This document shows positions 7,435 through 23,724 of a DNA stretch of 32,000 bases, in pieces (the first letter of the stretch is position 1; each line of letters opens with the position of its first letter). The notes below the pieces were generated by a model that did not search any database, was not told the origin of the DNA, and saw only the letters and a program-made list of their open reading frames with translations. Made by a program: the position numbers and the translations under genes. This DNA is from Crocosphaera subtropica ATCC 51142 (GTDB taxonomy: Bacteria > Cyanobacteriota > Cyanobacteriia > Cyanobacteriales > Microcystaceae), in the NCBI RefSeq assembly GCF_000017845.1, contig NC_010546.1, positions 2,700,001 through 2,732,000 on the forward strand, given 5' to 3'.

Positions 7435-7776
7435 ATGTTTACTATTCCAGCACCCTTCAAAAATAGATCAGAAGTTTCTGACCTCAAAGAACGCCTTGAC
7501 TGGGGCGAACCCGCCTTAACCATCATTGACGTTAGAGATCGAGAAGCTTTTAATCAGAGTCATATTACTGGCGCTGTTTCTCTTCCTATGGATGAATTAG
7601 TCAATAGAGCCTTAAATAACTTTGAACTGATTCGTGACATTTACATTTACGGCGCAACAGAAAAGGAAACAGCCTTAGGGGTTACCAAACTTCGCCTTGC
7701 TGGATATAAAAAGGTCGCTGAATTAGTTGGCGGTTTAAATGCTTGGAAAGCTTCTGGTTATCCCGTTGAAGGATAA
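7435..7776 (+). CDS. single-domain rhodanese-homology protein lacking the catalytic cysteine
   Basis: LTIIDVRDREAFNQSHITGAVSLP ... IYIYGATEKETA ... GGLNAWKASGYPVE has the rhodanese fold pattern. The whole 113-aa protein contains no Cys. Confidence 0.8.
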   Translation: MFTIPAPFKNRSEVSDLKERLDWGEPALTIIDVRDREAFNQSHITGAVSLPMDELVNRALNNFELIRDIYIYGATEKETALGVTKLRLAGYKKVAELVGGLNAWKASGYPVEG

Positions 7777-7802
7777 TTAACTAACTTTTAGATAAAGAAT
7801 GA

Positions 7803-7835
7803 CTACCTCAGATAATCCGTCTGGGGTAGGTTTTT
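7803..7835 (+). terminator. rho-independent terminator after the rhodanese gene
   Basis: Stem CTACCTCAGA / TCTGGGGTAG (10 bp including one G-U), 7-nt loop, then G plus TTTTT. Confidence 0.55.
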
Positions 7836-7853
7836 GTTGCGGGAACTAATTTT

Positions 7854-7884
7854 CTGAGGGGTGCGTAGAATTTGCCCAGCTATA
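7854..7884 (+). repeat. left copy of 31-bp imperfect direct repeat (pseudo 3' end of larB)
   Basis: CTGAGGGGTGCGTAGAATTTGCCCAGCTATA versus 10957..10987 CTGAGCGGTGCGTAAAATTTGCCCTGCTAAA: 27 of 31 identical by hand alignment. On the minus strand it reads IAGQILRTPQ, compared with ILAGQILRTAQ at the real larB C-terminus. Confidence 0.55.
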
Positions 7885-7894
7885 CCGCTATGCG

Positions 7895-7919
7895 AAAGGC
7901 AAAAGGCAAAAGGCAAAAG
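7895..7919. repeat. heptamer tandem repeat (AAAAGGC x3 plus partials), STRR-like
   Basis: gAAAGGC AAAAGGC AAAAGGC AAAAG, read directly; immediately inside the left islet boundary. Confidence 0.6.
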
Positions 7920-8011
7920 TAGGCCAGAAAAGAGTTTCAGGGGTTGTGAATGTCCTAACAAAAATGCGTAGTGCTATAAAATCATTGTTTTCAAGTAGGT
8001 TAGCCAATGTT

Positions 8012-8037
8012 CACCCTACACTTTTGTGTTTAGGGTG
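8012..8037 (-). terminator. possible terminator hairpin downstream of the 891-aa gene
   Basis: CACCCTA(A)ACAC-aaaa-GTGTAGGGTG on the minus strand, 45 nt after the stop at 8082. There is no clear U-tract. Confidence 0.3.
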
Positions 8038-8081
8038 GTAAGGTTCACTCTATCTTAAATTTGATTGAGTTAAATAATATC

Positions 8082-10757
8082 TTATAAAGTTTGTCTCGTT
8101 TTAATTTGTTTTATAATGGTGTTTGTGCATGGTCTAAGGGCAGCCTTCTCATTATCTAAGGCCACAACAGGATTATAAGAACTAGTGTATCCTGCCAGTA
8201 AATCTGATGGCAAAGTCACTCTAATGTTTTGACCATTTTTATCAGTTAAAACCTCACTTGTCTTAGGATCGATCAGATATTGAGGCATTATAATAAATAC
8301 TCCTTTTCGTGTTTTTTTCCCCATAAACAGTCCTAGTTCAAAAATGACATTATCTCTGGCTACTTTTTCCTCTCGGCCTCTTGAGAGCCTATCATCATCA
8401 GGAGCTAAAATAAATATCCCAAAATCATATTTATTGACAACATCTTCTAAAGATTCTAGGGGTGTTTGCAGTCCAAATGCCCCAAAACTATCACTATCTT
8501 TCCATAATACAGGATGAATATTTGGGTCTTCAGCTAAAAGTTGAACAACAGTATTAGCAATATTTAGATACTCTGAAGACGAACCAATAAAAACTTTAGG
8601 GGGTATTTGTGACATTGTTTTTCGTGCTGATGATTTTGTTCCCTTTCCCAATGATATATCAAGGTGGAGGAATTTCGCAAGCTGATTCAATTGTAAATCC
8701 TCTTGAATAATTATGTGTTCTAAATTCTTGCCAATTTGTATTACAGCATCGGAATGCACTTGTATTAAACTTTCTTTAATTAATACTAAGGCTTCACTTT
8801 CTTCCTTTTTTGTAAGTCTATATGATTTATAAGAAATCTCTGATATTTTAGGATCTTTTTTGCCCTTTGGTAATTGCTTCCAAAAATGTATAGCATAATC
8901 CTTTGCTTTTTCTAGCAACTCATTTTTTGTACTACCTATACTTTTATTATTACTATGTTTGAGTATCTCCCTAAAAGGTATAAATAAACCACTGAAAGAA
9001 GTTTTAGTTCTTGTGATTTTTTCCTTTTCATCTAACAATTCATTAAAAACTTGGTCAGACATAGCAATAGCATTTAGCCAAGCGTCTAAAGCATAATTAC
9101 CCATAAGACCTTCCACAGTTCCCCACTCAGAGTAAAATCCACCATCTAATTTAGGAAGTTTAACTGAATGCTCACGAAATAAGTCTTGAGCATTTTTAGG
9201 TTTATTTTTATATTCCTTCGCATTCAATCGATATAATAGGCCTAATGTAGTAACATTCGTTGCATTATAGTCTTTCTTAACGACAGCTTTTGCTAGATCA
9301 ATTGCTAAGTTTTTAAATTCTCTTCTTTTCTGTGATGTTAAATTTTTCTCTTCGTCTACTTTATAAAAAAAATATTTGGACAAAGTATTCCATTCTGTGA
9401 GTTTTTGAGGCTCACTATCTTTAAAAACGTCAAAAGTATTTTCGAGTAATTCTGAATAAAGATCAAGAATGAAAATACGGAATATATTTCTATGTTCTTC
9501 CAATATTTCTAAAGAGATTTTTGCAATTAGAGGATGACGAGTTAAAACAGAACTCCCTGCATAAGAACTAGATAGCAATGGAATTTCTTGTCCTAAGTAT
9601 TCCAAAATGTCTATCTGAAGCTCTCTAATTTTACAATTAAATATTTTGGCTAAAGTCCCTTGATAAAGAATGTCTTTTTCCTCTGCATGAATAGCAGCAA
9701 TATAGGCAAAAACTTCGAGCAATTTTCTTGGATGTTCTTTATCATTAATTATGATAGGAGTCTTATAAAGTTTTGAACATAAGTCATATAGTCGATTTTT
9801 TAATTCTTGAGTCCCGTAAAGAACTGCAAGAACTCCTCCAAATAAAGTTCTATCTTCCATTGATTCAGATACTTTTCCTTGTTCACGATTAGCCGCATTT
9901 AAAAATTTTTCTGCTAGATGATTAATGGTTTCCTTACTAATATTATCATTACTTTCTATTCCTTGTATTTCTAGTCCTTTGGGAAGATACTCTATCCAGT
10001 TTTCTACGATTTTTATCGCATCATAATTAGATAAACCCTCAATTCGATAAGGATGAGCAAAATATCCTGGATATTGTGACCAATACTGACGTTGGGCTAA
10101 TTTAAAGTCTATAGTGCGACAACAGAATAAGAAACGAAAACATACATTTTTATCTTTTTTTTCTAGCTCTAGGTAATCAATAACTTTTACAATTTCTTCA
10201 AAAATTTGTTCTGCATGATCGGAAACAATAATCACATTCTTTTTCCCTCTATTATCGTGATTTTTATCTTTATCTTCAATGATATAATCTACTAATTTAA
10301 TTAAAGATTTAGAAGTTGATGGAGGTGTAGCAATATTGGATTCTTGTCGCCAATAACCTCTCCAATCTCTGTCACCAGACCTTTTGCGAAGTAAAAGCTC
10401 AACAGATTGCATCAACACTGTTGTTTTTCCCTCTCCTGTTGCCCCTGTAATCCATTTAACATTTACTCTCTCTCTGCTTTCAGATTCTATAATGTCATTA
10501 ACAATGTTCTCAACAATTTCTCTTGATGGAATACGTAGAGAAGTGATTTCCAACCAATCGGGTTTATACCCTTGAAAATAACTAATAATCCTGTCATCTA
10601 AATATTTTTTGTAATCTTCTTCAAATTCTTTATAATCTTTTTTATAATCCTTTTTATAATCTTTTTTGTCATCTAGTAGGACGTTCTTTAAACTTTGATA
10701 TGTTATTTTAGTCCAGTCTTGTGACCAGTTTAGGTTTTCTCCTACATTATTCTCCAT
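8082..10757 (-). CDS. 891-aa P-loop NTPase (STAND-like) with C-terminal TIR-like domain (PF10137 / CAP12-Pycsar-effector type); candidate anti-phage protein
   Basis: Walker A GATGEGKT is at aa 105-112 (nt 10422..10445, verified by back-translation). Walker-B-like NVIIVSD ends at D180. The region aa ~230-710 is helical. In aa ~721-865, KVFIGSSSEY...YDFGIFILAPDD...ARDNVIFELGLFMGKKTRKGVFII...LPSDLAG-like closely follows the pattern of the 'nucleotide-binding protein containing TIR-like domain' family. E807 (nt 8337..8339) sits in the FELG motif. Confidence 0.8.
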   Translation of the reverse strand: MENNVGENLNWSQDWTKITYQSLKNVLLDDKKDYKKDYKKDYKEFEEDYKKYLDDRIISYFQGYKPDWLEITSLRIPSREIVENIVNDIIESESRERVNVKWITGATGEGKTTVLMQSVELLLRKRSGDRDWRGYWRQESNIATPPSTSKSLIKLVDYIIEDKDKNHDNRGKKNVIIVSDHAEQIFEEIVKVIDYLELEKKDKNVCFRFLFCCRTIDFKLAQRQYWSQYPGYFAHPYRIEGLSNYDAIKIVENWIEYLPKGLEIQGIESNDNISKETINHLAEKFLNAANREQGKVSESMEDRTLFGGVLAVLYGTQELKNRLYDLCSKLYKTPIIINDKEHPRKLLEVFAYIAAIHAEEKDILYQGTLAKIFNCKIRELQIDILEYLGQEIPLLSSSYAGSSVLTRHPLIAKISLEILEEHRNIFRIFILDLYSELLENTFDVFKDSEPQKLTEWNTLSKYFFYKVDEEKNLTSQKRREFKNLAIDLAKAVVKKDYNATNVTTLGLLYRLNAKEYKNKPKNAQDLFREHSVKLPKLDGGFYSEWGTVEGLMGNYALDAWLNAIAMSDQVFNELLDEKEKITRTKTSFSGLFIPFREILKHSNNKSIGSTKNELLEKAKDYAIHFWKQLPKGKKDPKISEISYKSYRLTKKEESEALVLIKESLIQVHSDAVIQIGKNLEHIIIQEDLQLNQLAKFLHLDISLGKGTKSSARKTMSQIPPKVFIGSSSEYLNIANTVVQLLAEDPNIHPVLWKDSDSFGAFGLQTPLESLEDVVNKYDFGIFILAPDDDRLSRGREEKVARDNVIFELGLFMGKKTRKGVFIIMPQYLIDPKTSEVLTDKNGQNIRVTLPSDLLAGYTSSYNPVVALDNEKAALRPCTNTIIKQIKTRQTL

Positions 10758-12978: not shown

Positions 12979-13159
12979 AGTTGATTATTAACCCATAAAA
13001 TCAAGGCGATCGTACGTCCTTATTAAAAAGGCTGATTGATAATAACAGAAAATATTTTAGTCCCTTAATAATGAGCGATCGCAAAGGTTCCCCAAGTCCC
13101 ATAAAATGTAACCAGTAGAAAACCCATCAAACTATTTGGTTGAACGCAGAGGAACTTTT

Positions 13160-14065
13160 ATGAAAATAGCCATCTTGTCCCAAGATGCTTCCTTATACTC
13201 AACAAGAAGACTCAAAGAAGCAGGAGAAGAATTAGGACATGAAATGCGTGTCGTTAACTATCTTCGCTGTTATATGAATATTACTTCCCATAAACCTGCC
13301 GTTTACTACAACGGTAAACTCCTAGAAAGTTTTGATGCAGTGATTCCTCGCATTGCTGCTTCTAAAACTTTTTATGGTACAGCCGTCGTCCGTCAATTTG
13401 AAGTGATGGGCGTGTTTAGTGCCAATGAATCACAAGCCATTTCTCGCTCCCGTGATAAACTGCGTTGCTTACAAATTTTAGCAAGGGATGGCATCGGTTT
13501 ACCCGTCACAGGATTTGCCCATGCAACCCAAGACATCGAAGGGTTACTGGACTTTGTGGGTGGTGCGCCGGTGGTTATTAAACTACTCGAAGGAACCCAA
13601 GGAATAGGGGTGGTTCTCGCAGATACCAATAACGCAGCCAAATCAGTGATAGAAGCCTTTCGTCAGTTAGATGCGAACATTTTGGTACAAGAGTTTATTA
13701 AAGAGGCTGCGGGGGTTGATTTACGCTGTTTTGTAGTTGGGGGAAAAGTGGTTGCTGCCATGAAACGGAAAGGCGCAGAAGGAGACTTCAGATCCAACCT
13801 GCACCGAGGGGGAAAAGCGGATATGGTTAAATTAACCCCAGAAGAAAGAACGACCGCCGTGAGGGCTGCAAAATCTATGGGCTTAAAAGTTGCAGGAGTC
13901 GATATGTTACGCTCCAATCATGGCCCAGTGGTGATGGAAGTAAACTCTTCTCCTGGAATAGAAGGTATAGAAAAAGCATCTGGTATTGATGTGGCCAAGA
14001 AAATCATCGAATTTTTAGCCAAAAATGCTCCTTCTGGGAGTACCCGCGATCGCATTCAGTTTTAG
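13160..14065 (+). CDS. rimK: RimK-family ATP-grasp alpha-L-glutamate ligase
   Basis: Start moved to ATG 13160 (MKIAILSQD...); the track start at 13136 is TTG. ATP-grasp motifs: [52 protein letters not shown]. Confidence 0.85.
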
Positions 14066-14149
14066 GGATCATCTAACGGGAAGTGTGGGAAAAATGTTGA
14101 TCGTTTCTCCCCCTGCCTCCTCTGCTCCAAAATTCAATTTTAACGAATC

Positions 14150-15103
14150 ATGACCAACCCGACTTTAGAAATTGGTGGAGTGGCGATCGCTCCTGGCCAA
14201 AAAGAACGTTTAGAGATTCCAGTTGCCCAACTTCCTACCCGAACCACTATTTCTTTGCCTGTGGTGGTGATCAATGGTCAATATCAAGGTCCAAGATTGT
14301 GGTTAAGTGCAGCGATTCATGGGGATGAAATCAACGGAGTTGAAATTATTCGACAGATTTTAAGCAAAATTAAGGCTAAATATTTATATGGAGCTATTAT
14401 TGCTGTTCCTGTGGTTAATGTATTTGGATTTATTGAACAGTCTCGTTATTTACCTGATCGCCGTGACTTAAACCGCTCTTTTCCTGGTTCTCCTCAAGGA
14501 TCGTTGGCTTCCCGTTTAGCTCATTTATTCATGACGGAAATTGTTAACCATAGTACCCACGGCATTGATTTACACACAGCAGCCCAACCAAGGATTAACT
14601 TACCTCAAATTCGAGCCAATTTACTGGATACGGAAACCTATCGCTGCGCCCAGGCTTTCGGCGCACCATTGATGATTCATGCCACCACCCGTGATGGTTC
14701 CCTGCGTCAAGCAGCTAGTAAACAGGGTATTCCCGTGTTGTTATACGAAGCAGGGGAAGCGTGTCGTTTTGATCCACAAGCCATTGATATTGGAGTCAGA
14801 GGGATTCTGCATGTGATGGATCTCTTGGAGATGTATACCCACCCTCTCACGGAGGATCTGCCATCCCCTTCCCTAGAAATAGAGAAAACAAAATGGGTTA
14901 GGGCATCTCGTGGGGGATTACTACATCTAGAAGTCAAATTAGGGGATAAAATCGAAAAAAAACAGCTTTTGGCGATTATTACTGACGCATTTGGCGAAAC
15001 AAAAGCAAAAATTCGTTCTCCTGATCAGGGTGTGGTTATTGGCCAAGTTCAAAATCCCTTGGTGAATCAAGGGGACGCAATCGTTCATCTGGCTTTAGCT
15101 TAA
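14150..15103 (+). CDS. succinylglutamate desuccinylase / aspartoacylase (AstE/AspA) family zinc deacylase
   Basis: The zinc motif AIHGDEINGVE, DLNRSFPG, and a later HGIDLHT are typical of the family. It is commonly paired with rimK. Confidence 0.8.
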   Translation: MTNPTLEIGGVAIAPGQKERLEIPVAQLPTRTTISLPVVVINGQYQGPRLWLSAAIHGDEINGVEIIRQILSKIKAKYLYGAIIAVPVVNVFGFIEQSRYLPDRRDLNRSFPGSPQGSLASRLAHLFMTEIVNHSTHGIDLHTAAQPRINLPQIRANLLDTETYRCAQAFGAPLMIHATTRDGSLRQAASKQGIPVLLYEAGEACRFDPQAIDIGVRGILHVMDLLEMYTHPLTEDLPSPSLEIEKTKWVRASRGGLLHLEVKLGDKIEKKQLLAIITDAFGETKAKIRSPDQGVVIGQVQNPLVNQGDAIVHLALA

Positions 15104-15144: not shown

Positions 15145-17325
15145 TTAAATATTAATGCTTTGAGGAATATTGGTCGGGAGTAAACATTCGTAAGGAAATA
15201 AACGCTCACTACTTTGATTGCGTTGATGAATAATCGTATGAGCTTGGTTAAGTTTTCGATGAAAGGTGTCTAAGGCAGTTTGAAGGGGTTGAGAATTAGA
15301 AAAAGCTGAAGAAGAATAATGTCCTAACTGGGTATAGTAAACTGAGCCTAATAAATAGAGAATATTAATTTGACTTTGGGCTTGAGATAAAGAGGGTAAA
15401 CCATCAAGAAAACTTTGGGTTTCCTTAACATGGGTAGGAGGAGGTGAATAACGGGCTAGAGGGAATCCCGGTACATACGTCATTAAGGTTTTTTGAGGAA
15501 AGTTAACCGCAGCGTGTTGTGCGCTAGCAGTAAAAATGAGGGTGGAGAGGACTTGACTTAAATAATCTTTGGTGTTGATATGACCAAGAGAATCTTCACC
15601 AAAATTAGATAATCTTCCCCCATTAATCGAAGCTAAGGTGGTTGCCCAATGTTGTAAGGCTTGATCAGAGGCAACGGCAGCATCATGAGTGTAGTAAATA
15701 GAAACATAATCCTTGACCCAGGTATGAATAGCATCCCAAATTAACTGGCCATCATCTCGGTAGGGATAGATAGGTAAAGTATGGGGGTTATCAACCCTAC
15801 GATTCACTAAATTTTGCGGAAAATTAATGGCGTTGAAATTGAAGAGGTAACTCTGAGTACCTTGACTGCTCAAGGATTGATCACTTCCAATACTAGAAGC
15901 TAACAGTGAATCAACGGTTCCTCCTGGAGCCACTAAAAAAGCATGGGCCCCGTAATTAATGACCACAGTTCCTTCTAAATGGGGAATCAACAAATTCCTG
16001 AGAGGATGCTCCTCTGGTAAGTTATATGTAGGAACAGCAAAAGCTTCAACCACTAAATGGGTTCGACCCAAATGGGAAATCAATTCATGATAATTACAAT
16101 CTGCCATCTGTACAATATTTTTGGCACTCATCCAAGGTTCCCCTTGGCTATCAGTATCTAAGGGAGTAAAAGTTGTCCATTGCTCACTCATCGCTGTCTT
16201 TCGATAAGTAATGGCCACTGGAAATAAACAACGGGTCGCATTGGCTTCTGGAGGAACGGCAAAAAAAGCGATGGGAGCGCAAATATACTTCTGTTGAACT
16301 AGCTCTTGATTAATGTAATTCCCGTTCACCAAGCTGTTCAAGATTCCATAATCAGAAACATACAGTCTTTGAGACTCTATCACCTCAGCTAGAGAATCAA
16401 CAACTCCAAATTTAGCAGCGATCGCACTGTACTGATCTGGAGATACTGGACAAGACCCATGTTGTTGGTCAAACCCTTGCAGTACCAAAGGGTTAGCTCC
16501 AGCCACTTGTAAATAAGCAAAAATGCGATCGTCTCTAAAAACATCAGCAATGAGAGGCTTTTCAATGATTTGATACAAGCGATTGTAGTCATCAAGGGTC
16601 AAAGACTCAGGGGACTGAGCTAACTCAGGTTGGGGAACATCAGCGATTTCTGCCATTTTTGTGGCATATTTGAGAATATTTTGTAGACTCACAATGATAG
16701 AAGTCTCGGTTGATCTTTGACGAAATAGTTTCGCTATTTTTTCATCAAAGTCAAGCAATTGATTGCTTAGAAGTTCTATTAACCCTCTTTTTTCATGAAT
16801 TGAGTTAAATGGCTGATAGTTTTCTTCCAGTTGAGAGTCTAAGTTAAATTTTTGGTCAAGTTGTCTCAAATTGATTTCTAAGGTTTTAACACAAGCTTCA
16901 AGCTTATTCTGGTTTTCTGACTCTTCAAAATCGGCTTCAATTGAATCTAAATTATTACTAATCTCAGAGAAATTTTGTTTAAATATTGAGACTGACTCCT
17001 CATTTTTCTCAAGATAGTCATTAATGATAGTAATCAGAACCCTATAAATAACTTTAACAACCCAAATTAGATTGGGAAATGAACCTTTAGGGAAGTTAGG
17101 GAGAGGAATCCCTAATATTTTTTCTATCACTTCACTTTCAGGAACGTTAGTAATAGATAAAGGCGGAAGATAACTATAGTTATATTTATAACTGTCGTTA
17201 GAAAAATAACGCTGTTGGATATATAAACCTAATAAAATTATTGCTAATTTTAGGGGAGATAAGGATTTTTTCCTATCGGATAAGATCCCTAAAGCTTGTT
17301 TATTTTCATCTTGATTCATCGTCAT
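15145..17325 (-). CDS. iron lipoxygenase with a non-PLAT helical N-terminal extension
   Basis: Iron-ligand motifs: HELISHLGRTHLV (H413 at nt 16087..16089, H418 at nt 16072..16074; verified), HAAVNFPQ, and the C-terminal IPQSINI ending in Ile. These correspond to soybean-type HQLMSHWLNTH / HAAVNFGQ / PNSISI. Confidence 0.9.
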   Translation of the reverse strand: MTMNQDENKQALGILSDRKKSLSPLKLAIILLGLYIQQRYFSNDSYKYNYSYLPPLSITNVPESEVIEKILGIPLPNFPKGSFPNLIWVVKVIYRVLITIINDYLEKNEESVSIFKQNFSEISNNLDSIEADFEESENQNKLEACVKTLEINLRQLDQKFNLDSQLEENYQPFNSIHEKRGLIELLSNQLLDFDEKIAKLFRQRSTETSIIVSLQNILKYATKMAEIADVPQPELAQSPESLTLDDYNRLYQIIEKPLIADVFRDDRIFAYLQVAGANPLVLQGFDQQHGSCPVSPDQYSAIAAKFGVVDSLAEVIESQRLYVSDYGILNSLVNGNYINQELVQQKYICAPIAFFAVPPEANATRCLFPVAITYRKTAMSEQWTTFTPLDTDSQGEPWMSAKNIVQMADCNYHELISHLGRTHLVVEAFAVPTYNLPEEHPLRNLLIPHLEGTVVINYGAHAFLVAPGGTVDSLLASSIGSDQSLSSQGTQSYLFNFNAINFPQNLVNRRVDNPHTLPIYPYRDDGQLIWDAIHTWVKDYVSIYYTHDAAVASDQALQHWATTLASINGGRLSNFGEDSLGHINTKDYLSQVLSTLIFTASAQHAAVNFPQKTLMTYVPGFPLARYSPPPTHVKETQSFLDGLPSLSQAQSQINILYLLGSVYYTQLGHYSSSAFSNSQPLQTALDTFHRKLNQAHTIIHQRNQSSERLFPYECLLPTNIPQSINI

Positions 17326-17348
17326 TTGTCTCTAATTAATGGCAAATA

Positions 17349-18728
17349 TTAGTGGCTAGTTAGTCCCAATTGAGAGCGACGTACTTTTCCCACAATCCTG
17401 ATGACATCGGTTAAGGTTTCTAGAGCTAAGTCTTTTCCTGGACAGATTCGTCCAGCATGGCGATCGCCCACGGAATGAAATCCCATGTGATAGGGGCAAA
17501 GATTTTCCCGTTGTGGTTGAAATTCGTAGGGAGTTGCTCCCCAGACGGTTTCTGTGAGCATTCCTAAAATCATGGGGATAAGAATAATAGTGCCTGGGGG
17601 AAAGGTTCTTGTTTTCCCTGCGATTGTGGTTGTAAAAGAGTCCGTTGCCACTCGGTGGGAGGCACTAACGGGTGTGAATAAACGACCACATTCTAATAAA
17701 AAAAGCTTAATACTTGAAGGGTTATCGAGATCAAGCCGATCCCAATAAGCTGTGACATCAATTTCACTGGTTTTAAGACCTTTGTATGGGGGAAGACTTT
17801 GATAACCCATAGCCGTTCGTCCTAGATGTAGAGGGCCTTGCAACGCAGCAATACTCATCAAGGCTACCATCAGTTTGGCTAATTCCCGTCGGGTCATGTT
17901 ATTGTACTTGGGATTATTTTCTTGGAAATTAGCAAGAACAGGAGATTTTTCATAAATCGTCCCCACCGCTTCGATCATTCCAGGAATTTCACTCCATCCC
18001 AAGAGATTAAACCTTTCTAAAATGCGACTAGCAGCGAAATAGTGTAAGGTTCCTCGTCTGGTATAGTGAAAATTGGTAAGGGCGGCAATACTACTGTCAT
18101 CATGAGGATCAATGGCAAAGATAACGTAGTGAAGGTATCTGATCAAAAAGCTCATTAAGCCCCGATTCTCATCAATAAAAAACCCTTCTAATCGATTTTC
18201 ACTAGCTAATTCTCTATAATCAGCCCCCAAGGTTTCTAATAACTCTCGTCCTACGGGATCATGTTGACGGACTTTCATCTCATCCGTAAAAAAGTAATCT
18301 TCAACACAGTGACGAAAGGCATCATGATCATTTCCTTCTGTCCCCGTATCTGAGAGGGAAATAAGAAACACATTCCGCCCTCCTATATCAATTTGTGGGC
18401 AGTGACGGGCAGACAGGGGAGATATACCCAAATACCAAGTCCGTGCTTGAGGAGAGGTCAGATTAGTTTCTATGGTTTTAAAGTCTGCTAAGACTACCTG
18501 TCCAGCACAACAAAACGTTGATCCCAATTTACGCTTTTTCATATCTAGGTAAACGGGATAGCTAAACAGGAAGTTTGCCAGAAATCCCTCTAAAAAACCG
18601 ATAATCGGCAATAAAGTTAAGCTAACAAAATTTTGAGGATTCTCTATAGCCCAAGCCTGAAAACGATTAAGAATTCTGTCTAACAGATTTGGTTTCAGGG
18701 ACACAGAAGATTGATTAGTGGAGTTCAT
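17349..18728 (-). CDS. CYP74-clan-like cytochrome P450 (candidate allene oxide synthase / hydroperoxide lyase / divinyl ether synthase)
   Basis: Heme-thiolate loop FHSVGDRHAGRICPGKDLAL (Cys429 = nt 17442..17444). The C-x-G-K-D pattern and the lengthened loop are as in plant CYP74 (..NKQCAGKDFV). ExxR is present in LLECGRLFTPV. N-terminal PIIGFLEGF...KRKLGSTF resembles CYP74 P..G...D...KY.STVFR. The stop is 23 nt upstream of the lipoxygenase start. Confidence 0.7.
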   Translation of the reverse strand: MNSTNQSSVSLKPNLLDRILNRFQAWAIENPQNFVSLTLLPIIGFLEGFLANFLFSYPVYLDMKKRKLGSTFCCAGQVVLADFKTIETNLTSPQARTWYLGISPLSARHCPQIDIGGRNVFLISLSDTGTEGNDHDAFRHCVEDYFFTDEMKVRQHDPVGRELLETLGADYRELASENRLEGFFIDENRGLMSFLIRYLHYVIFAIDPHDDSSIAALTNFHYTRRGTLHYFAASRILERFNLLGWSEIPGMIEAVGTIYEKSPVLANFQENNPKYNNMTRRELAKLMVALMSIAALQGPLHLGRTAMGYQSLPPYKGLKTSEIDVTAYWDRLDLDNPSSIKLFLLECGRLFTPVSASHRVATDSFTTTIAGKTRTFPPGTIILIPMILGMLTETVWGATPYEFQPQRENLCPYHMGFHSVGDRHAGRICPGKDLALETLTDVIRIVGKVRRSQLGLTSH

Positions 18729-18898
18729 TGGCTTAAGTCCCGATTGTAAGCCTATTCTAGCAAAGGGATGGACGGTACACAGAAGTGCTTAACATTCTCT
18801 AATACAACCTGAGTTCGATATAAAAATAAAAAAATCTATAGATAACTTGTCAAAATAAGAAGTCTCAAACCCCGATTCCCTCGTTAAAACAATCCTAA

Positions 18899-18934
18899 CT
18901 CCGTTGCGTAGCACGACGTAGTCGCACTCCGAAC
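18899..18934 (+). repeat. 36-bp repeat, left copy (inverted relative to 23775..23810)
   Basis: The reverse complement GTTCGGAGTGCGACTACGTCGTGCTACGCAACGGAG versus GTTTGGAGTGCGACTAAGTCGTGCTACGCAATGGAG gives 33 of 36 identical. Confidence 0.7.
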
Positions 18935-18997
18935 CCCTAACACCGAACTTAGGTTAATACAGTCAACCTAATTTTTTAGCCTCCTACCTCCGAGAGA

Positions 18998-19162
18998 TCA
19001 ATCACCAAAAAACCAAGTAAACAGGAGTAAAACCATAATTAAAAGACTTAAGTTCAACAAAGAGCCTAAACTGCTCAATAGGTGAATGGGGATAATGACC
19101 AACGTATAAGCTGCAAACCAACTGACCACAAAAAAAAATAACACCACAATGACAAGAAACAT
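18998..19162 (-). CDS. possible 54-aa two-TM hydrophobic peptide (not in ORF track)
   Basis: Hand-translated: MFLVIVVLFFFVVSWFAAYTLVIIPIHLLSSLGSLLNLSLLIMVLLLFTWFFGD. GAGAGGGATC precedes the ATG. Confidence 0.3.
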   Translation of the reverse strand: MFLVIVVLFFFVVSWFAAYTLVIIPIHLLSSLGSLLNLSLLIMVLLLFTWFFGD

Positions 19163-19502
19163 GATCCCTCTCTAGTTCAGTAATATAAAGGTTTTAAGAC
19201 AATTGCTTAATATTTGTTTACAGAAAAACAGCATTTTTTTTAATAATATGTAATAAATAATGACACAAAGGCATTGTATAAAATTAACTTGAAGGGGACA
19301 CAAGTAGAGATGAACGTCATCTTGAAAACCTCTGATAATTCTGAGACGACTATCTAGTTTTCTCAGGTTTCTTAAGAAAACTTTTGTAAGGGGCTTAGGA
19401 AACCGCAGAAATTGTGACCTGTATCTACAGCACAATCCCATCTGATGGAAGTCCTTTGTTCTACCCAACTCAACTTATTAAGTCAAGTAGGAGATTAATT
19501 CA

Positions 19503-20021
19503 ATGTTTGACGCATTTACCAGAGTTGTTTCTCAAGCTGATGCCCGTGGTGAGTTCCTATCCACCTCCCAGCTTGATGCTCTGAGCCAAATGGTAGCTGA
19601 AAGCAACAAGCGCATGGATTCCGTTAACCGCATCACCAGCAATGCTTCCACCATCGTTTCCAACGCTGCTCGTGCTTTATTTGCTGAGCAACCTCAATTA
19701 ATCAATCCCGGTGGAAATGCTTACACCAGTCGTCGTATGGCTGCTTGCTTACGGGACATGGAAATCATCCTACGCTACGTTACCTACGCTACCTTCAGTG
19801 GAGACGGCAGTGTACTCGAAGATCGTTGCTTAAATGGTCTTCGTGAAACCTATGTTGCGTTAGGTGTTCCAGGTGCTTCCGTTGCTAACGGCGTTCAAAA
19901 AATGAAAGAAGCAGCCCTCGAAATCGTTAACGATCGCAACAATATCACCCAAGGAGATTGTAGTGCCATCGTATCTGAAATCTCTGGATACTTTGATCGC
20001 GCTGCTGCTGCTGTTGCTTAA
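19503..20021 (+). CDS. cpcB: C-phycocyanin beta subunit
   Basis: [20 protein letters not shown]..., chromophore cysteines in [10 protein letters not shown] (Cys82) and QGDCSAI (Cys153), 172 aa. AGGAGA Shine-Dalgarno upstream. Confidence 0.95.
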
Positions 20022-20118
20022 AGATTAGCCTTGTAAGTGGTCAATAAGCAATTTCGTACACGATTTCAACACCGTATTCTAGGAAAACTTAGCAAAACAA
20101 TCGGGAGATACAAAAACC

Positions 20119-20607
20119 ATGAAAACCCCTTTGACTGAAGCCGTCGCTGCTGCTGATTCCCAAGGACGTTTCTTAAGCAGCACTGAAATCCAAACTGCTT
20201 TCGGACGTTTTCGTCAAGCTTCTGCCAGCTTAGAAGCAGCTAAAGCTCTAACCAGCAAAGCAGACTCCTTAATCAGTGGTGCTGCCAACGCAGTTTATCA
20301 GAAGTTCCCTTACACCACCCAAATGCAAGGGCCTAACTACGCTGCTGATCAACGTGGTAAAGATAAGTGCGCTCGTGACATCGGTTACTACCTCCGTATG
20401 GTTACTTATTGCTTAGTAGCTGGTGGAACCGGCCCTATGGATGAGTACCTCATCGCTGGTATCGATGAAATCAACCGCACCTTTGACTTATCCCCTAGCT
20501 GGTACGTTGAAGCTCTCAAGTACATCAAAGCTAACCACGGTTTAAGTGGAGATCCTGCTGTAGAAGCCAACTCCTACATTGATTACGCAATTAACGCACT
20601 AAGCTAG
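20119..20607 (+). CDS. cpcA: C-phycocyanin alpha subunit
   Basis: [23 protein letters not shown]..., Cys84 in [13 protein letters not shown], 162 aa. Confidence 0.95.
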
Positions 20608-20626
20608 TCATCTAGAAAGTGCTAAT

Positions 20627-20688
20627 GACCTGGAAAAGCGGGAGGTTGTTGGCTAATCACAGTTAGCAATCCTCTGTTTCTCCAGGTC
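20627..20688 (+). promoter_or_regulatory. long imperfect intercistronic stem-loop after cpcA (partial terminator / mRNA 3'-end stabiliser)
   Basis: GACCTGGA...TCCAGGTC is the outer 8-bp stem. Further AAA/TTT, GGAGG/CCTCT and TTGGCTA/TAGCAA pairing gives about 22 bp in total, with an 8-nt loop, followed by TTGTTG. Confidence 0.45.
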
Positions 20689-20731
20689 TTGTTGTATCTA
20701 ATATGCCATTAGCATTGTTAGGAGGTTAAAA

Positions 20732-21553
20732 ATGACCAGTTTAACAGCAGCGCAACGGTTAGGTTTTGAACCTTTTGTGAATATGGCTCCTGTGGAGTTG
20801 CGAGGAAATTGGACAGAAGAGCAAGCAGAAGTAGCGATTCGTGCTGCGTATCGTCAGGTACTCGGTAACGATCATCTGATGTCTTGTGAGCGACTCTTGA
20901 GTGCAGAATCTTTACTGAGAAATGGTGCCATTTCCGTCAAAGATTTTATCAGAGCGATCGCTCTGTCTGAGCTATACCGCAATAAATTTTTCCATAGCAA
21001 TCCCCAAAATCGCTTTATCGAACTCAATTATAAACATCTATTAGGTAGGGTTCCCTACGACCAATCGGAAATCGCCTATCACAGCGATCTATATCATCAA
21101 GAGGGATACGAAGCAGAAATTAATTCTTATATCGACTCTCTTGAATATCAAGAAAACTTTGGTGATAGAATCGTACCCTATTGTCGAGGGTTTTCAAGTC
21201 AGCGCAATCAAAAAACCGTTGGCTTTAGTCGGACCTTTCAACTCTATCGAGGATACGCTAATAGCGATCGCGCTCAAGGCAATAGTCATCAAGGTAAGTT
21301 AATTCAAGAAGTCGCCCGCAATAGTGCTTCCCCTGTGTACATTGGTGAGACAGCAGAAGTCTTATGCGGTGTGTCTGGTGGCAACCGTGACCAAGTCTAT
21401 CGCCTGAGAGTGGTACAAAAAGGAGTCATAGGGACAAAAACCCAACTACGTCGTAGTTGTCGAGAATACCTTGTTCCCTACGAACAGCTATCCAATAAAT
21501 TACAGCAAATCAACCGTCAAGGTGGCAAGGTAATCAATATTACCCCTGCTTAA
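20732..21553 (+). CDS. cpcC1: phycobilisome rod linker polypeptide (PBS-linker domain plus CpcD-like C-terminus)
   Basis: [20 protein letters not shown]..., [31 protein letters not shown]-terminal YRLRV...[32 protein letters not shown] Shine-Dalgarno upstream. Confidence 0.9.
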
Positions 21554-21654
21554 CCTATGCTGAACTTGAACGATGAGGGTTAATGGAAGTTAGCCCTTAT
21601 CCTCAATGTCCCTGTATCAATATCAATGGTAAATCAGAGAAAGGAGAACTAACA

Positions 21655-22542
21655 ATGCCAGTGACAACAGCAGCTTCTCGTCTCGGGACATCCGCTTTTG
21701 AGGAAACCTCTCCGGTAGAACTCCGTCCCGACTGGAGAAAAGAAGATGCCCAAGGGGTGATTCGTGCAGTCTATCGCCAAATTTTTGGCAACGACTACAT
21801 CATGAAGTCCCAACGTCTAATCAGTGCAGAATCATTGCTCTGTAATGGTTCGATTAGTGTCAGAGAGTTTGTGCGTTCTGTAGCCAAATCAGAACTGTAT
21901 AAAGAAAAATTCTTCTATAACAATTTCCAAACTCGCACCATCGAACTTAATTATAAGCATCTCTTAGGACGCGCTCCCTATGACGAGTCTGAGTTTGCTT
22001 ATCACCTCGATTTATATCAAACTCAAGGATTTGATGCTGATATCGATTCTTACATCGACTCAGGGGAATATCAAGAGAACTTTGGGGAAAATATCGTTCC
22101 TTATTATCGGGGATTTAATAACCAAGTCGGACAAAAAACCGTTGGTTTTACGCGGATGTTCCGTCTCTATCGCGGTTATGCCAATAGCGATCGCGCTCAA
22201 TTAGAAGGTAACACCGTTCGTTTAGCTACCGAATTAGGGCAAAATGGTTCCTCTGCTGTCGTTGGACCTTCTGGTGCTAACGACGGTTGGGCTTATCGTC
22301 CTTCTAAAGACGGTGCGACCCCCAATCAACAAGTATTTGGTGGAACCCTCGCCTTTGGGAATGAGGACAACAGAACCTATCGAGTTGAAATTTCTGGTAT
22401 CGGCGCAAGGGGAGCGAAAAACTATCCCAGTGTTCGTCGTAGTAGCCGTGCGTTGATTGTTCCTTACAAAGAATTATCAGCAACCCTACAACGCATTAGC
22501 CGTTCTGGAGGAAAAGTAGCGAGTATTACTCCTGCTGACTAG
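21655..22542 (+). CDS. cpcC2: phycobilisome rod linker polypeptide, second paralogue
   Basis: Start moved from the track's 21583 to ATG 21655 (AAGGAG at 21641..21646). It has the same domain signature as cpcC1 ([15 protein letters not shown]..., [18 protein letters not shown], ...[11 protein letters not shown]). Confidence 0.9.
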
Positions 22543-22622
22543 AAATAAGAAGTTTTTTCGCAACTTCTTATGCTATAACTTGATCCAAAATGAGTCAATA
22601 ATCGTTTAGGAAATTCTTTGTC

Positions 22623-22859
22623 ATGTTAGGTCAATCAGCATTAGTGGGATCAGCCAGTAACCCGTCTGCCAGTCGTGTCTTCGTTTATGAAGTGACTGGT
22701 CTTCGTCAGAATGACACCAACGATAAAAATAGTTATCCTGTGCGTCGCAGTGGTAGCGTTTTTATCAAAGTGCCTTACAGTCGTATGAACGAAGAAATGC
22801 AACGCATTACCCGTATGGGTGGTACCATCGTCAATATTACCCCTGCAACTGAATCATAA
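22623..22859 (+). CDS. cpcD: small rod-capping linker CpcD
   Basis: 78 aa; RVFVYEVTGLRQ...VPYSRMNEEMQRITRMGGTIVNITPA is the CpcD domain. Confidence 0.9.
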   Translation: MLGQSALVGSASNPSASRVFVYEVTGLRQNDTNDKNSYPVRRSGSVFIKVPYSRMNEEMQRITRMGGTIVNITPATES

Positions 22860-22866
22860 AGTTGTA

Positions 22867-23724
22867 ATGGTGGATTATTCCGAAGATAACAAGGCTATGG
22901 GATCGTCGACAGGTCAAGGATCTGCCGATGACCCCGCCTATACCATTGAACAAGCGTTATCCAATTTGCAACAAACCGATGACCCCAGTGCGCGGTATTA
23001 TGCAGCTTGGTGGATCGGGCGGTTTCGAGTCAATGAACCGACGGCCATTGAAGCATTGTTAACAGCATTAGAAGATGAAAGCGATCGCTCTCCCGATGGG
23101 GGTTATCCTTTACGACGTAACGCAGCTAAGGCGTTAGGAAAACTAGGGGATGTTTCGGTGGTACCAGCGTTAATCCATGCCTTAAATTGTAGTGATTATT
23201 ATGTCAGAGAATCGTCCGCCCAGTCTTTGGAAATGTTAGGGGATGAGCGAGCCATTCCAGGGTTGATTCGTTTGTTAGATGGAGGGGTAGAGGCAGCCCA
23301 ACAGGTAGAAGGAAAACCCCATCTTAGCGAACCTTACGAAGCGATTTTAGAAGCCTTAGGGACGTTACAGGCAAAAAACGCCGTTAGTTTAATTGAACCG
23401 TTTGTAAACCATTTTGTGCCAAAGGTGCAATTTGCAGCAGCAAGAGCATTATATCAATTGACTGAGAATCCTATCTACGGGGAAAGATTAGTTAAAGCAT
23501 TACAAGAAACAACATTACAGGTGCGTCGATCGGCTTTAATGGATTTAGGAGCGATTGGTTATTTAGGAGCAGTGGATGCGATCGCTAACACCTTAGCAGA
23601 AAATAGTTTAAAATTAATTTCTCTCAAGGGCATTTTAGAACATCATTTAACTCAGCAACCAATAAAACAAGAATTAGATGATGATCTAGTTCATTTGATG
23701 AATGTAATGGATTCATTACTCTAA
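22867..23724 (+). CDS. cpcE: phycocyanobilin lyase subunit CpcE (HEAT-repeat)
   Basis: Start moved to ATG 22867, 7 nt after the cpcD stop. YTIEQALSNLQQTDDPSARYYAAWWIGRFRV, SPDGGYPLRRNAAKALGKLGD and YYVRESSAQSLEMLGD are CpcE hallmarks. Confidence 0.8.
   Translation: MVDYSEDNKAMGSSTGQGSADDPAYTIEQALSNLQQTDDPSARYYAAWWIGRFRVNEPTAIEALLTALEDESDRSPDGGYPLRRNAAKALGKLGDVSVVPALIHALNCSDYYVRESSAQSLEMLGDERAIPGLIRLLDGGVEAAQQVEGKPHLSEPYEAILEALGTLQAKNAVSLIEPFVNHFVPKVQFAAARALYQLTENPIYGERLVKALQETTLQVRRSALMDLGAIGYLGAVDAIANTLAENSLKLISLKGILEHHLTQQPIKQELDDDLVHLMNVMDSLL

Follow-up and report, generated by a model that had tools for sequence, protein, structure and literature searches.

A deeply divergent cytochrome P450-like protein encoded beside a lipoxygenase in Crocosphaera subtropica: a candidate two-step oxylipin operon

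What does a cytochrome P450 (P450)-like protein do when its gene lies immediately upstream of a lipoxygenase (LOX) gene in a cyanobacterium? We addressed this question for a 32,000-nucleotide (nt) stretch of Crocosphaera subtropica ATCC 51142 (contig NC_010546.1, positions 2,700,001 to 2,732,000; referred to here as the window). A first-pass annotation of this stretch had described a two-gene operon composed of a LOX and a P450 resembling the CYP74 clan (i.e., allene oxide synthases [AOSs] along with hydroperoxide lyases and divinyl ether synthases), and had proposed that the P450 acts on hydroperoxides supplied by the LOX, with no need for O2 or a reductase. Our analysis indicates that the pair is probably an operon for a two-step oxylipin pathway in which the P450-like protein converts the hydroperoxides formed by the LOX; heme binding, turnover, and reductase independence are what we infer from sequence and gene context. 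The CYP74 label did not stand. The two genes and their spacer are as follows.

17349..18728, minus strand: P450-like gene, 459 amino acids (aa), upstream member of the pair (open reading frame [ORF])
15145..17325, minus strand: iron LOX gene, 726 aa, downstream member of the pair (ORF)
17326..17348, minus strand: intergenic spacer of 23 nt (read directly from the sequence)

The ORF positions and the 23-nt gap between these adjoining minus-strand genes were exactly as annotated, and all of the motifs that had been quoted (HELISHLGRTH, HAAVNFPQ, the terminal Ile, ECGR, GDRHAGRICPGKDLAL, and KRKLGSTF) were located at the expected residues. The spacer would lengthen to 29 nt with the second ATG as the LOX start, the choice made in a public gene prediction (724 aa). 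Examination of positions 17326 to 17348 revealed no terminator-like or promoter-like site within the gap.

The downstream gene clearly encodes an iron lipoxygenase, as had been annotated. Its product matched Pfam PF00305 (E = 2.7e-54; 185.3 bits against a cut-off of 23.6; aa 262 to 706) and, in a PDB sequence search, 54 solved LOX sequences at E ≤ 1e-3. The best solved relatives were the Pseudomonas aeruginosa LOX structures 4g32/4rpe (E = 1.4e-89), followed by the 569-aa chains of 5med/5mee/5mef (E = 1.1e-79), whose deposited name is arachidonate 15-lipoxygenase; we take the 569-aa LOX of 5med to be the Cyanothece mini-LOX CspLOX2. The following features were assigned to this gene.

15148..16602, minus strand: LOX catalytic domain, aa 242 to 726 (the span of the PDB matches)
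16057..16089, minus strand: LOX motif HELISHLGRTH, aa 413 to 423 (read directly)
15493..15516, minus strand: LOX motif HAAVNFPQ, aa 604 to 611 (read directly)
15148..15150, minus strand: codon of the C-terminal Ile726 (...SINI; read directly)
16603..17325, minus strand: N-terminal extension, aa 1 to 241, with a hydrophobic segment at aa 25 to 36

The metal-ligand pattern is thus intact (i.e., H-x4-H-x4-H, H-x3-N, and the C-terminal Ile carboxylate), and the ligand roles are presumably those of soybean LOX-1 (His499, His504, His690, Asn694, and Ile839). The N-terminal extension had no PDB or Pfam match and no homologue among the LOX partners at related loci, which carry N-terminal extensions of 0 to ~360 aa.

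The P450-like protein had no Pfam or NCBIfam match at E ≤ 1, falling below the gathering threshold of the Pfam P450 model PF00067 (22.8 bits), and a single-sequence phmmer search of the PDB returned nothing beyond borderline similarity to the BM3 and CYP21 heme loops (E = 0.2 to 0.7). More than 200 homologues at 54 to 81% identity were found across cyanobacterial orders; some of the close ones are annotated as "cytochrome 450," and none carries a precomputed Pfam domain. Mean column identity in a 30-sequence cyanobacterial alignment of the family was 68%. A cyanobacteria-only profile gave zero P450 matches in the PDB, while a broadened 53-sequence profile, to which distant members had been added, matched solved P450s (best E = 2.3e-11). 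Three of the distant members themselves exceed the PF00067 threshold (P0210, 28.3 bits; P0243, 29.7 bits; P0133, 24.4 bits). Given that the window protein fails this threshold and that its distant relatives pass it, membership in the P450 superfamily rests on fold, motifs, and transitive homology. An exhaustive HMMER scan recovered only 245 relatives among 1.84 billion cluster representatives, and the family is therefore best described as a small isolated lineage outside the mainstream P450 cloud. Since it is invisible to the Pfam P450 model, P450 surveys using that model would miss it.

The AlphaFold2 (AF2) model of the protein (predicted local distance difference test score [pLDDT], 75.9; predicted TM score [pTM], 0.77) gave 936 Foldseek matches in the PDB at E ≤ 1e-3; all of the 50 matches listed were P450s (probability, 1.00), at TM scores of 0.42 to 0.54 and identities of 12 to 18%. 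The P450 signature elements are located as follows.

17421..17483, minus strand: Cys-ligand (heme-thiolate) loop, aa 416 to 436, GFHSVGDRHAGRICPGKDLAL, with Cys429 (from conservation and alignment to BM3)
17505..17522, minus strand: PERF-like meander FQPQRE, aa 403 to 408 (aligned with FRPERF in BM3 and with FVPERF in Arabidopsis AOS [AtAOS])
17682..17693, minus strand: K-helix ExxR, here ECGR, aa 346 to 349 (aligns to the ExxR of BM3, CYP11A1, and AtAOS)
17811..17891, minus strand: predicted I-helix, aa 280 to 306 (DSSP helices at 280 to 295 and 297 to 306)

In the 53-sequence broad alignment, E346 and R349 of the ExxR motif, R427, and C429 were invariant, and F417, G421, P430, and G431 were at least 90% conserved. 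F403 and R407 of the meander were invariant in the cyanobacterial alignment, as was an FQxW motif in the N-terminal helical region. The Cys loop aligns to FGNGQRACxG of BM3 with a 2-residue insertion. On the strength of the fold matches, the broad-profile matches, and the invariant Cys, ExxR, and R427, we identify the upstream protein as a genuine, deeply divergent member of the P450 superfamily with an intact thiolate-ligand site, presumably occupied by heme. The first-pass reading of a P450 with a heme-thiolate-type loop is thus borne out by Foldseek and by the invariant Cys429 and ExxR. The same conservation argues against the idea that this is a noncatalytic or nonheme P450-fold protein (e.g., a chaperone for the LOX or a sensor of lipid or heme): a score below the Pfam threshold and a poorly defined model around the Cys loop would suit it, but Cys429, R427, both ExxR residues, and the Arg of the meander are invariant across more than 50 very divergent members, as expected for a working heme-thiolate site, and we regard it as extremely improbable.

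The association with LOX was surveyed in 80 loci on contigs taken from one genome per species (41 taxon labels), counting LOX genes within 6 kb of the P450-like gene. Such a LOX was present at 27 of the 80 loci, corresponding to 24 of the 41 labels, and in three different gene orders: the P450-like gene followed by the LOX gene (Crocosphaera and Nostocales), the reverse order (Elainella, Pegethrix, Chamaesiphon, Waterburya, and others), and a convergent arrangement (Xenococcus, Dapis, a Nostoc metagenome-assembled genome [MAG], and others). The linked LOXs vary in size, from mini-LOXs of 548 aa up to forms of 839 aa, and share only 33 to 46% identity with the window LOX; this is so even in a Crocosphaera MAG in which the P450-like protein has 81% identity to that of the window. 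Given this variation in size and the low identity, the linkage persists even as the LOX changes or gives way to another. Few bacterial genomes carry LOX genes, and we therefore judge the adjacency to be far above chance, as an inference and not as a computed statistic.

Several distant members carry both domains on one chain, the P450-like domain preceding the LOX. P0210 (1,085 aa) is one uninterrupted P450-like::LOX ORF on a 70% G+C bacterial metagenomic contig (locus L081, 4141 to 7398, plus strand), where its neighbors are LysR, TauE, and DUF188 genes. P0186 (Tetraselmis striata; 1,130 aa) and P0265 (Cymbomonas tetramitiformis) combine P450-like, PLAT, and LOX domains, and a LOX domain is also present in P0162 (747 aa). 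The cyanobacteria-only profile covers P0186 and P0210 nearly end to end (E = 2e-45 and 2e-28, respectively). No reductase or ferredoxin domain was found in these four LOX fusions. A homologue search seeded with P0210 retrieved only P0210 itself.

How would such a protein work? In the first step of the proposed pathway, the LOX would oxygenate a polyunsaturated fatty acid to a fatty acid hydroperoxide. The P450-like heme-thiolate enzyme would then use this hydroperoxide itself as substrate and oxidant alike. The O-O bond would be broken at the ferric heme, and the radical so formed would be rearranged, giving an allene oxide, an epoxy alcohol, a hemiacetal or aldehydes, or a divinyl ether as candidate products; O2, NAD(P)H, and a redox partner would all be dispensable. 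Chemistry of this kind (i.e., O-O cleavage and radical rearrangement) is established for CYP74, for CYP8A1/CYP5A1, and for fungal dioxygenase (DOX)-linked P450s (PMC10813956, PMC13049297). The I-helix of the window protein is consistent with this scheme. It reads SIAALQGPLH in place of the oxygen-activation motif (A/G)Gx(D/E)T(T/S), so that the acid-alcohol positions (D-T in CYP11A1; E267-T268 in BM3) correspond to L296-Q297 or to Q297-G298, depending on the register, and only A294 and G298 are conserved family-wide in this stretch. The lack of an I-helix acid-alcohol pair, a trait of the CYP74 clan, holds in either register. Together, the linkage in three gene orders, the natural fusions, and the absent pair strongly support the annotated notion of action on LOX hydroperoxides free of O2 and reductase, and the protein is most likely a self-sufficient heme-thiolate enzyme that isomerizes or cleaves fatty acid hydroperoxides.

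One competing explanation is an ordinary monooxygenase, dependent on redox partners, that hydroxylates or epoxidizes a fatty acid or a LOX product with O2 and electrons from ferredoxin. The P450 fold with all core motifs present suits such an enzyme, as do the abundant ferredoxins of cyanobacteria and the identity of the best PDB profile matches, which are monooxygenases such as BcmD, CYP11A1, CYP24A1, and BM3. That likeness is, however, mostly limited to the generic C-terminal core. In neither register do the relevant I-helix residues include an acid or a Thr/Ser, nor are these sites conserved in the family; the LOX fusions are devoid of a reductase or ferredoxin domain, and inspection of the neighborhood genes in the window revealed no ferredoxin or reductase gene flanking the pair. 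An ordinary monooxygenase is, in our judgment, an unlikely explanation.

Several points weigh against the two-step reading. The I-helix alignments are of low confidence and differ by one residue in register, and the acid-alcohol pair has also been lost in some genuine O2- or H2O2-using P450s. Many cyanobacterial ferredoxins are encoded elsewhere in the genome, so that a missing local redox partner is weak evidence. AF2 confidence is low at residues 91 to 132 and 412 to 428, which makes the active-site geometry unreadable. Seventeen of the 41 labels, among them Microcoleus, Okeania, and Trichodesmium, have no LOX within 6 kb of the P450-like gene; the enzyme may thus have hydroperoxides of other origin among its substrates, or a different function altogether. 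Finally, conservation is much stronger in the P450-like protein (54 to 81% identity) than in its LOX partners (33 to 46%), a hint of a role not tied to one particular LOX.

At the LOX-less loci, no other conserved dioxygenase or redox partner adjoins the gene. The neighbors there include petB/petD, glyQ, rlmN, a WD40 protein gene, a sigma factor gene, and, in Aulosira, one patatin lipase gene, and only a small barrel protein is conserved. The Aulosira case is a LOX-less locus in an Aulosira sp. MAG (L039) with a 1,036-aa patatin-like phospholipase (7546 to 10656, plus strand; PF01734, E = 1.4e-14) encoded directly downstream; this enzyme could release fatty acid substrates.

The barrel protein (~181 aa) is encoded next to the P450-like gene at 42 of the 80 loci (e.g., L014, 5211 to 5765, minus strand; L044, 7570 to 8115, plus strand) and is not encoded in the window. 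In almost every Microcoleus locus, its gene directly follows the P450-like gene, and at four loci (L010, L011, L012, and L016) it stands between the LOX and P450-like genes on the LOX strand. The protein was found in cyanobacteria only and has no Pfam domain; its AF2 model, of high confidence, is a beta-barrel (pLDDT, 93). A search for an allene-oxide-cyclase-like or other known fold gave only weak lipocalin/nitrophorin-type matches (best E = 0.004; TM score, ~0.37), and the fold was left unassigned. One metagenomic sequence (P0195) is an in-frame fusion of the barrel to the P450-like N terminus. This fusion and the position of the barrel gene between the LOX and P450-like genes suggest a three-component system in many cyanobacteria, two parts of which would be present in the window organism.

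These observations bear on a further explanation, in which the primary role of the P450-like protein is independent of LOX (i.e., turnover of nonenzymatic thylakoid lipid hydroperoxides for detoxification or signaling, or a reaction with the barrel protein) and the LOX linkage is secondary. The stronger conservation of the P450-like protein (54 to 81% identity, with a mean column identity of 68%, versus 33 to 46% for the LOX partners), the 17 of 41 labels without a nearby LOX, and the barrel neighbor instead of or besides a LOX at 42 of 80 loci, together with the P0195 fusion, would fit such a role. Against it, direct coupling wherever a LOX is present is suggested by the three independent gene orders and by the bacterial and green algal LOX fusions. 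We consider this explanation improbable as a replacement for the two-step pathway, to practically the same degree as the monooxygenase; it still predicts a lipid hydroperoxide as substrate and so overlaps with that pathway without excluding it.

Is the protein, then, a true CYP74-clan enzyme (an AOS, a hydroperoxide lyase, or a divinyl ether synthase), only one with a diverged sequence? As the CYP74A reference, we used AtAOS, in a sequence identical to PDB 2rch over residues 33 to 518. AtAOS scored 21.1 bits against the broad profile, lower than each of the 60 best solved P450 sequences (27.9 to 46.3 bits), and had no match to the cyanobacterial profile. In HHalign, BM3 ranked above AtAOS (probability, 96.0% versus 93.8%; score, 70.9 versus 60.2), and the alignment of the family with AtAOS (93.5% probability; 20% identity) spanned 104 columns of the generic C-terminal core only. 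CYP families are named by a rule of at least 40% identity to a member, cited here from a paper that includes CYP50918A1 from Plasmodiophora (PMC10813956); the 20% over 104 HHalign columns falls short of that figure for CYP74. No CYP74 structure was present among the top 50 Foldseek matches listed.

The local features that had prompted the CYP74 comparison did not bear it out either. The segment from Gly to Cys, annotated as an extended CYP74-like loop, is 2 residues longer than that of BM3 and 5 shorter than that of CYP74A (AtAOS). The insertion in the CYP74 Cys loop amounts to ~9 residues in CYP74A structures. Cys-loop length varies in distant family members, some of which are longer by up to ~20 residues. 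C-x-G-K-D, taken as a CYP74 mark, is common to the window protein and the verified CYP74A, but K-D is not conserved within the family: the residues after C-x-G are K or R and then D, G, A, E, or T, and the wider consensus is CPGR. KRKLGSTF (aa 65 to 72), the supposed N-terminal parallel, aligns equally in BM3 and AtAOS to the generic K-x-G-x-I-F region of the A-helix and beta1. The catalytic Asn321 of CYP74A falls opposite the conserved Ala294 in a greedy HHalign alignment of a low-confidence region, with Gln297 one turn further along the helix.

Some of the evidence does favor CYP74 membership: the LOX partnership and the missing acid-alcohol pair are shared with CYP74, C-x-G-K-D occurs in both the window protein and CYP74A, in some distant members the Cys loop is up to ~20 residues longer, and HHalign aligned AtAOS at 93.5% probability over 104 C-terminal columns. 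Set against these are the profile score of AtAOS, which at least 60 solved P450s exceed, and its missing match to the cyanobacterial profile; the better HHalign result of BM3; the listed fold matches; the shorter Gly-to-Cys segment; the Ala at the position of Asn321 (subject to the low-confidence alignment); and the variability of K-D across the family. The P450 profile comparison suggested for the CYP74 assignment thus placed the family farther from CYP74A than from at least 60 other solved P450 sequences. The clan label was rejected on profile score, HHalign, fold rank, and loop length, which all stand against it, and was set apart on these grounds rather than on a full phylogeny; we regard a diverged CYP74-clan enzyme as very unlikely.

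With the two-step LOX-P450 pathway as the preferred reading, we turn to its genomic setting. The HIP1 octamer GCGATCGC occurs once in each gene (at 16418 and 17460), as had been noted. The window contains 16 copies, against 0.12 expected by chance, and the 3.6-kb pair contains 2, against 1.8 expected at the mean density of the window. Since its HIP1 density equals the window average and its G+C content is unremarkable within the window, the pair looks compositionally native. The octamers themselves speak only weakly for the long residence in the genome that had been read from them, 2 copies being the window average.

The neighbors of the pair are genes for RimK and an AstE/AspA-like protein on one side and, divergently, a cpcBA-linker operon. 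More precisely, a RimK-type ATP-grasp ligase gene and then a succinylglutamate desuccinylase/aspartoacylase-like gene occupy window positions 13136 to 15103 (plus strand), convergent with the LOX gene; the LOX and AstE-like stop codons are 41 nt apart. The phycocyanin operon (19503 to 23724, plus strand; cpcB, cpcA, a pair of CpcD-domain rod linkers, and a HEAT-repeat phycobilisome lyase) is divergent from the P450-like/LOX pair and separated from it by a 774-nt intergenic region (18729 to 19502). Elsewhere in the window, an 891-aa protein (8082 to 10757, minus strand) combines a STAND NTPase domain (nSTAND_NTPase5) with a CAP12/Pycsar-type TIR effector domain. Its gene lies in the lowest-G+C stretch of the window (0.31 to 0.33, versus ~0.40) and looks like an antiphage defense gene on a possibly acquired segment.

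Outside the cyanobacteria, the family extends to dinoflagellates, diatoms, prasinophytes, and Myxococcota. The dinoflagellate members (Polarella, Biecheleria, Pelagodinium, and Effrenium) are ~500 aa long and have N-terminal extensions; the diatom members are from Attheya, Nitzschia, and Bacillariaceae. None of the noncyanobacterial family members found carries a CYP family name. One contig with a Legionellales label (L046; JACCVJ010000234.1, from a Tatlockia sp. MAG) has a cyanobacterial P450-like gene (57% identity) with a convergent LOX gene. Given that its gene layout is nearly the same as that of a Nostoc MAG locus (L052), this label likely reflects binning contamination.

The family probably turns LOX hydroperoxides into further signaling or defense lipids. 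A wider proposal can be made tentatively, as a real possibility that falls somewhat short of an even chance: this orphan P450 lineage may be an unrecognized, independently evolved class of hydroperoxide-transforming enzymes, supplying the missing step of the lyase, AOS, or epoxyalcohol synthase type after LOX in cyanobacteria and possibly, via transfer, also in dinoflagellates, diatoms, and prasinophytes, with the barrel protein as a third component in many cyanobacteria. If the predicted activity holds, the family would offer concrete candidate genes for hydroperoxide-converting steps, a further independent origin of hydroperoxide-isomerizing hemoproteins, and new reductase-free biocatalysts for fatty acid valorization.

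Pairings of a LOX with a hemoprotein that converts hydroperoxides have been described in plants (CYP74), in corals and some cyanobacteria (catalase-related AOS), and, as DOX-P450 enzymes, in fungi. Reviews describe cyanobacterial LOXs only as mini-LOXs and with catalase-related partners and list no other hemoprotein partner (PMC11719350, PMC13049297). Our full-text searches, with subscription-only literature outside their reach, returned no published P450 partner of a cyanobacterial LOX and no P450-LOX fusion.

AtAOS (CYP74A; PDB 2rch) resembles the window protein as a P450-fold heme-thiolate enzyme that acts downstream of a LOX, is devoid of the acid-alcohol pair, and uses the hydroperoxide as substrate and oxidant, the last presumably true of the window protein as well. 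It differs in that no specific sequence or fold affinity links the two, the Cys loop of the window protein is shorter, the catalytic Asn321 is tentatively aligned with an Ala, and the window family has an N-terminal helical region with the invariant FQxW. We know of no CYP74 gene fused to a LOX gene. The catalase-related AOS::LOX proteins (coral Plexaura homomalla, PDB 3dy5; the Anabaena and Acaryochloris fusions) likewise place a hydroperoxide-transforming hemoprotein next to or N-terminal to a LOX, in the same domain order as P0210 and P0186, and the coral LOX domain is homologous to the window LOX (E = 9e-61). Their hemoprotein, however, has a catalase fold and a Tyr ligand, whereas the window protein has a P450 fold and a Cys ligand.

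The fungal DOX-P450 fusions (linoleate diol synthases, 8R/9S-DOX-AOS, and EAS) also join a self-sufficient P450 to a dioxygenase that makes hydroperoxides (PMC13049297). Their dioxygenase is a heme cyclooxygenase-like DOX rather than a nonheme-iron LOX, the DOX comes first and the P450 second, and standard models do recognize their P450 domains. Prostacyclin synthase (CYP8A1) and thromboxane synthase (CYP5A1) would belong to the same proposed mechanistic class, as P450s that isomerize a lipid (endo)peroxide and need neither O2 nor a reductase; they are animal enzymes acting on prostaglandin H2 (PGH2), and neither was among the best 60 profile matches or the top 50 listed fold matches. On the LOX side, the P. 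aeruginosa LOX (4g32) and the 5med LOX are the closest solved relatives, and only the window LOX has a 241-aa N-terminal extension. The kind of system is thus known, while the hemoprotein lineage, its fusions with LOX, and the barrel partner appear to be new.

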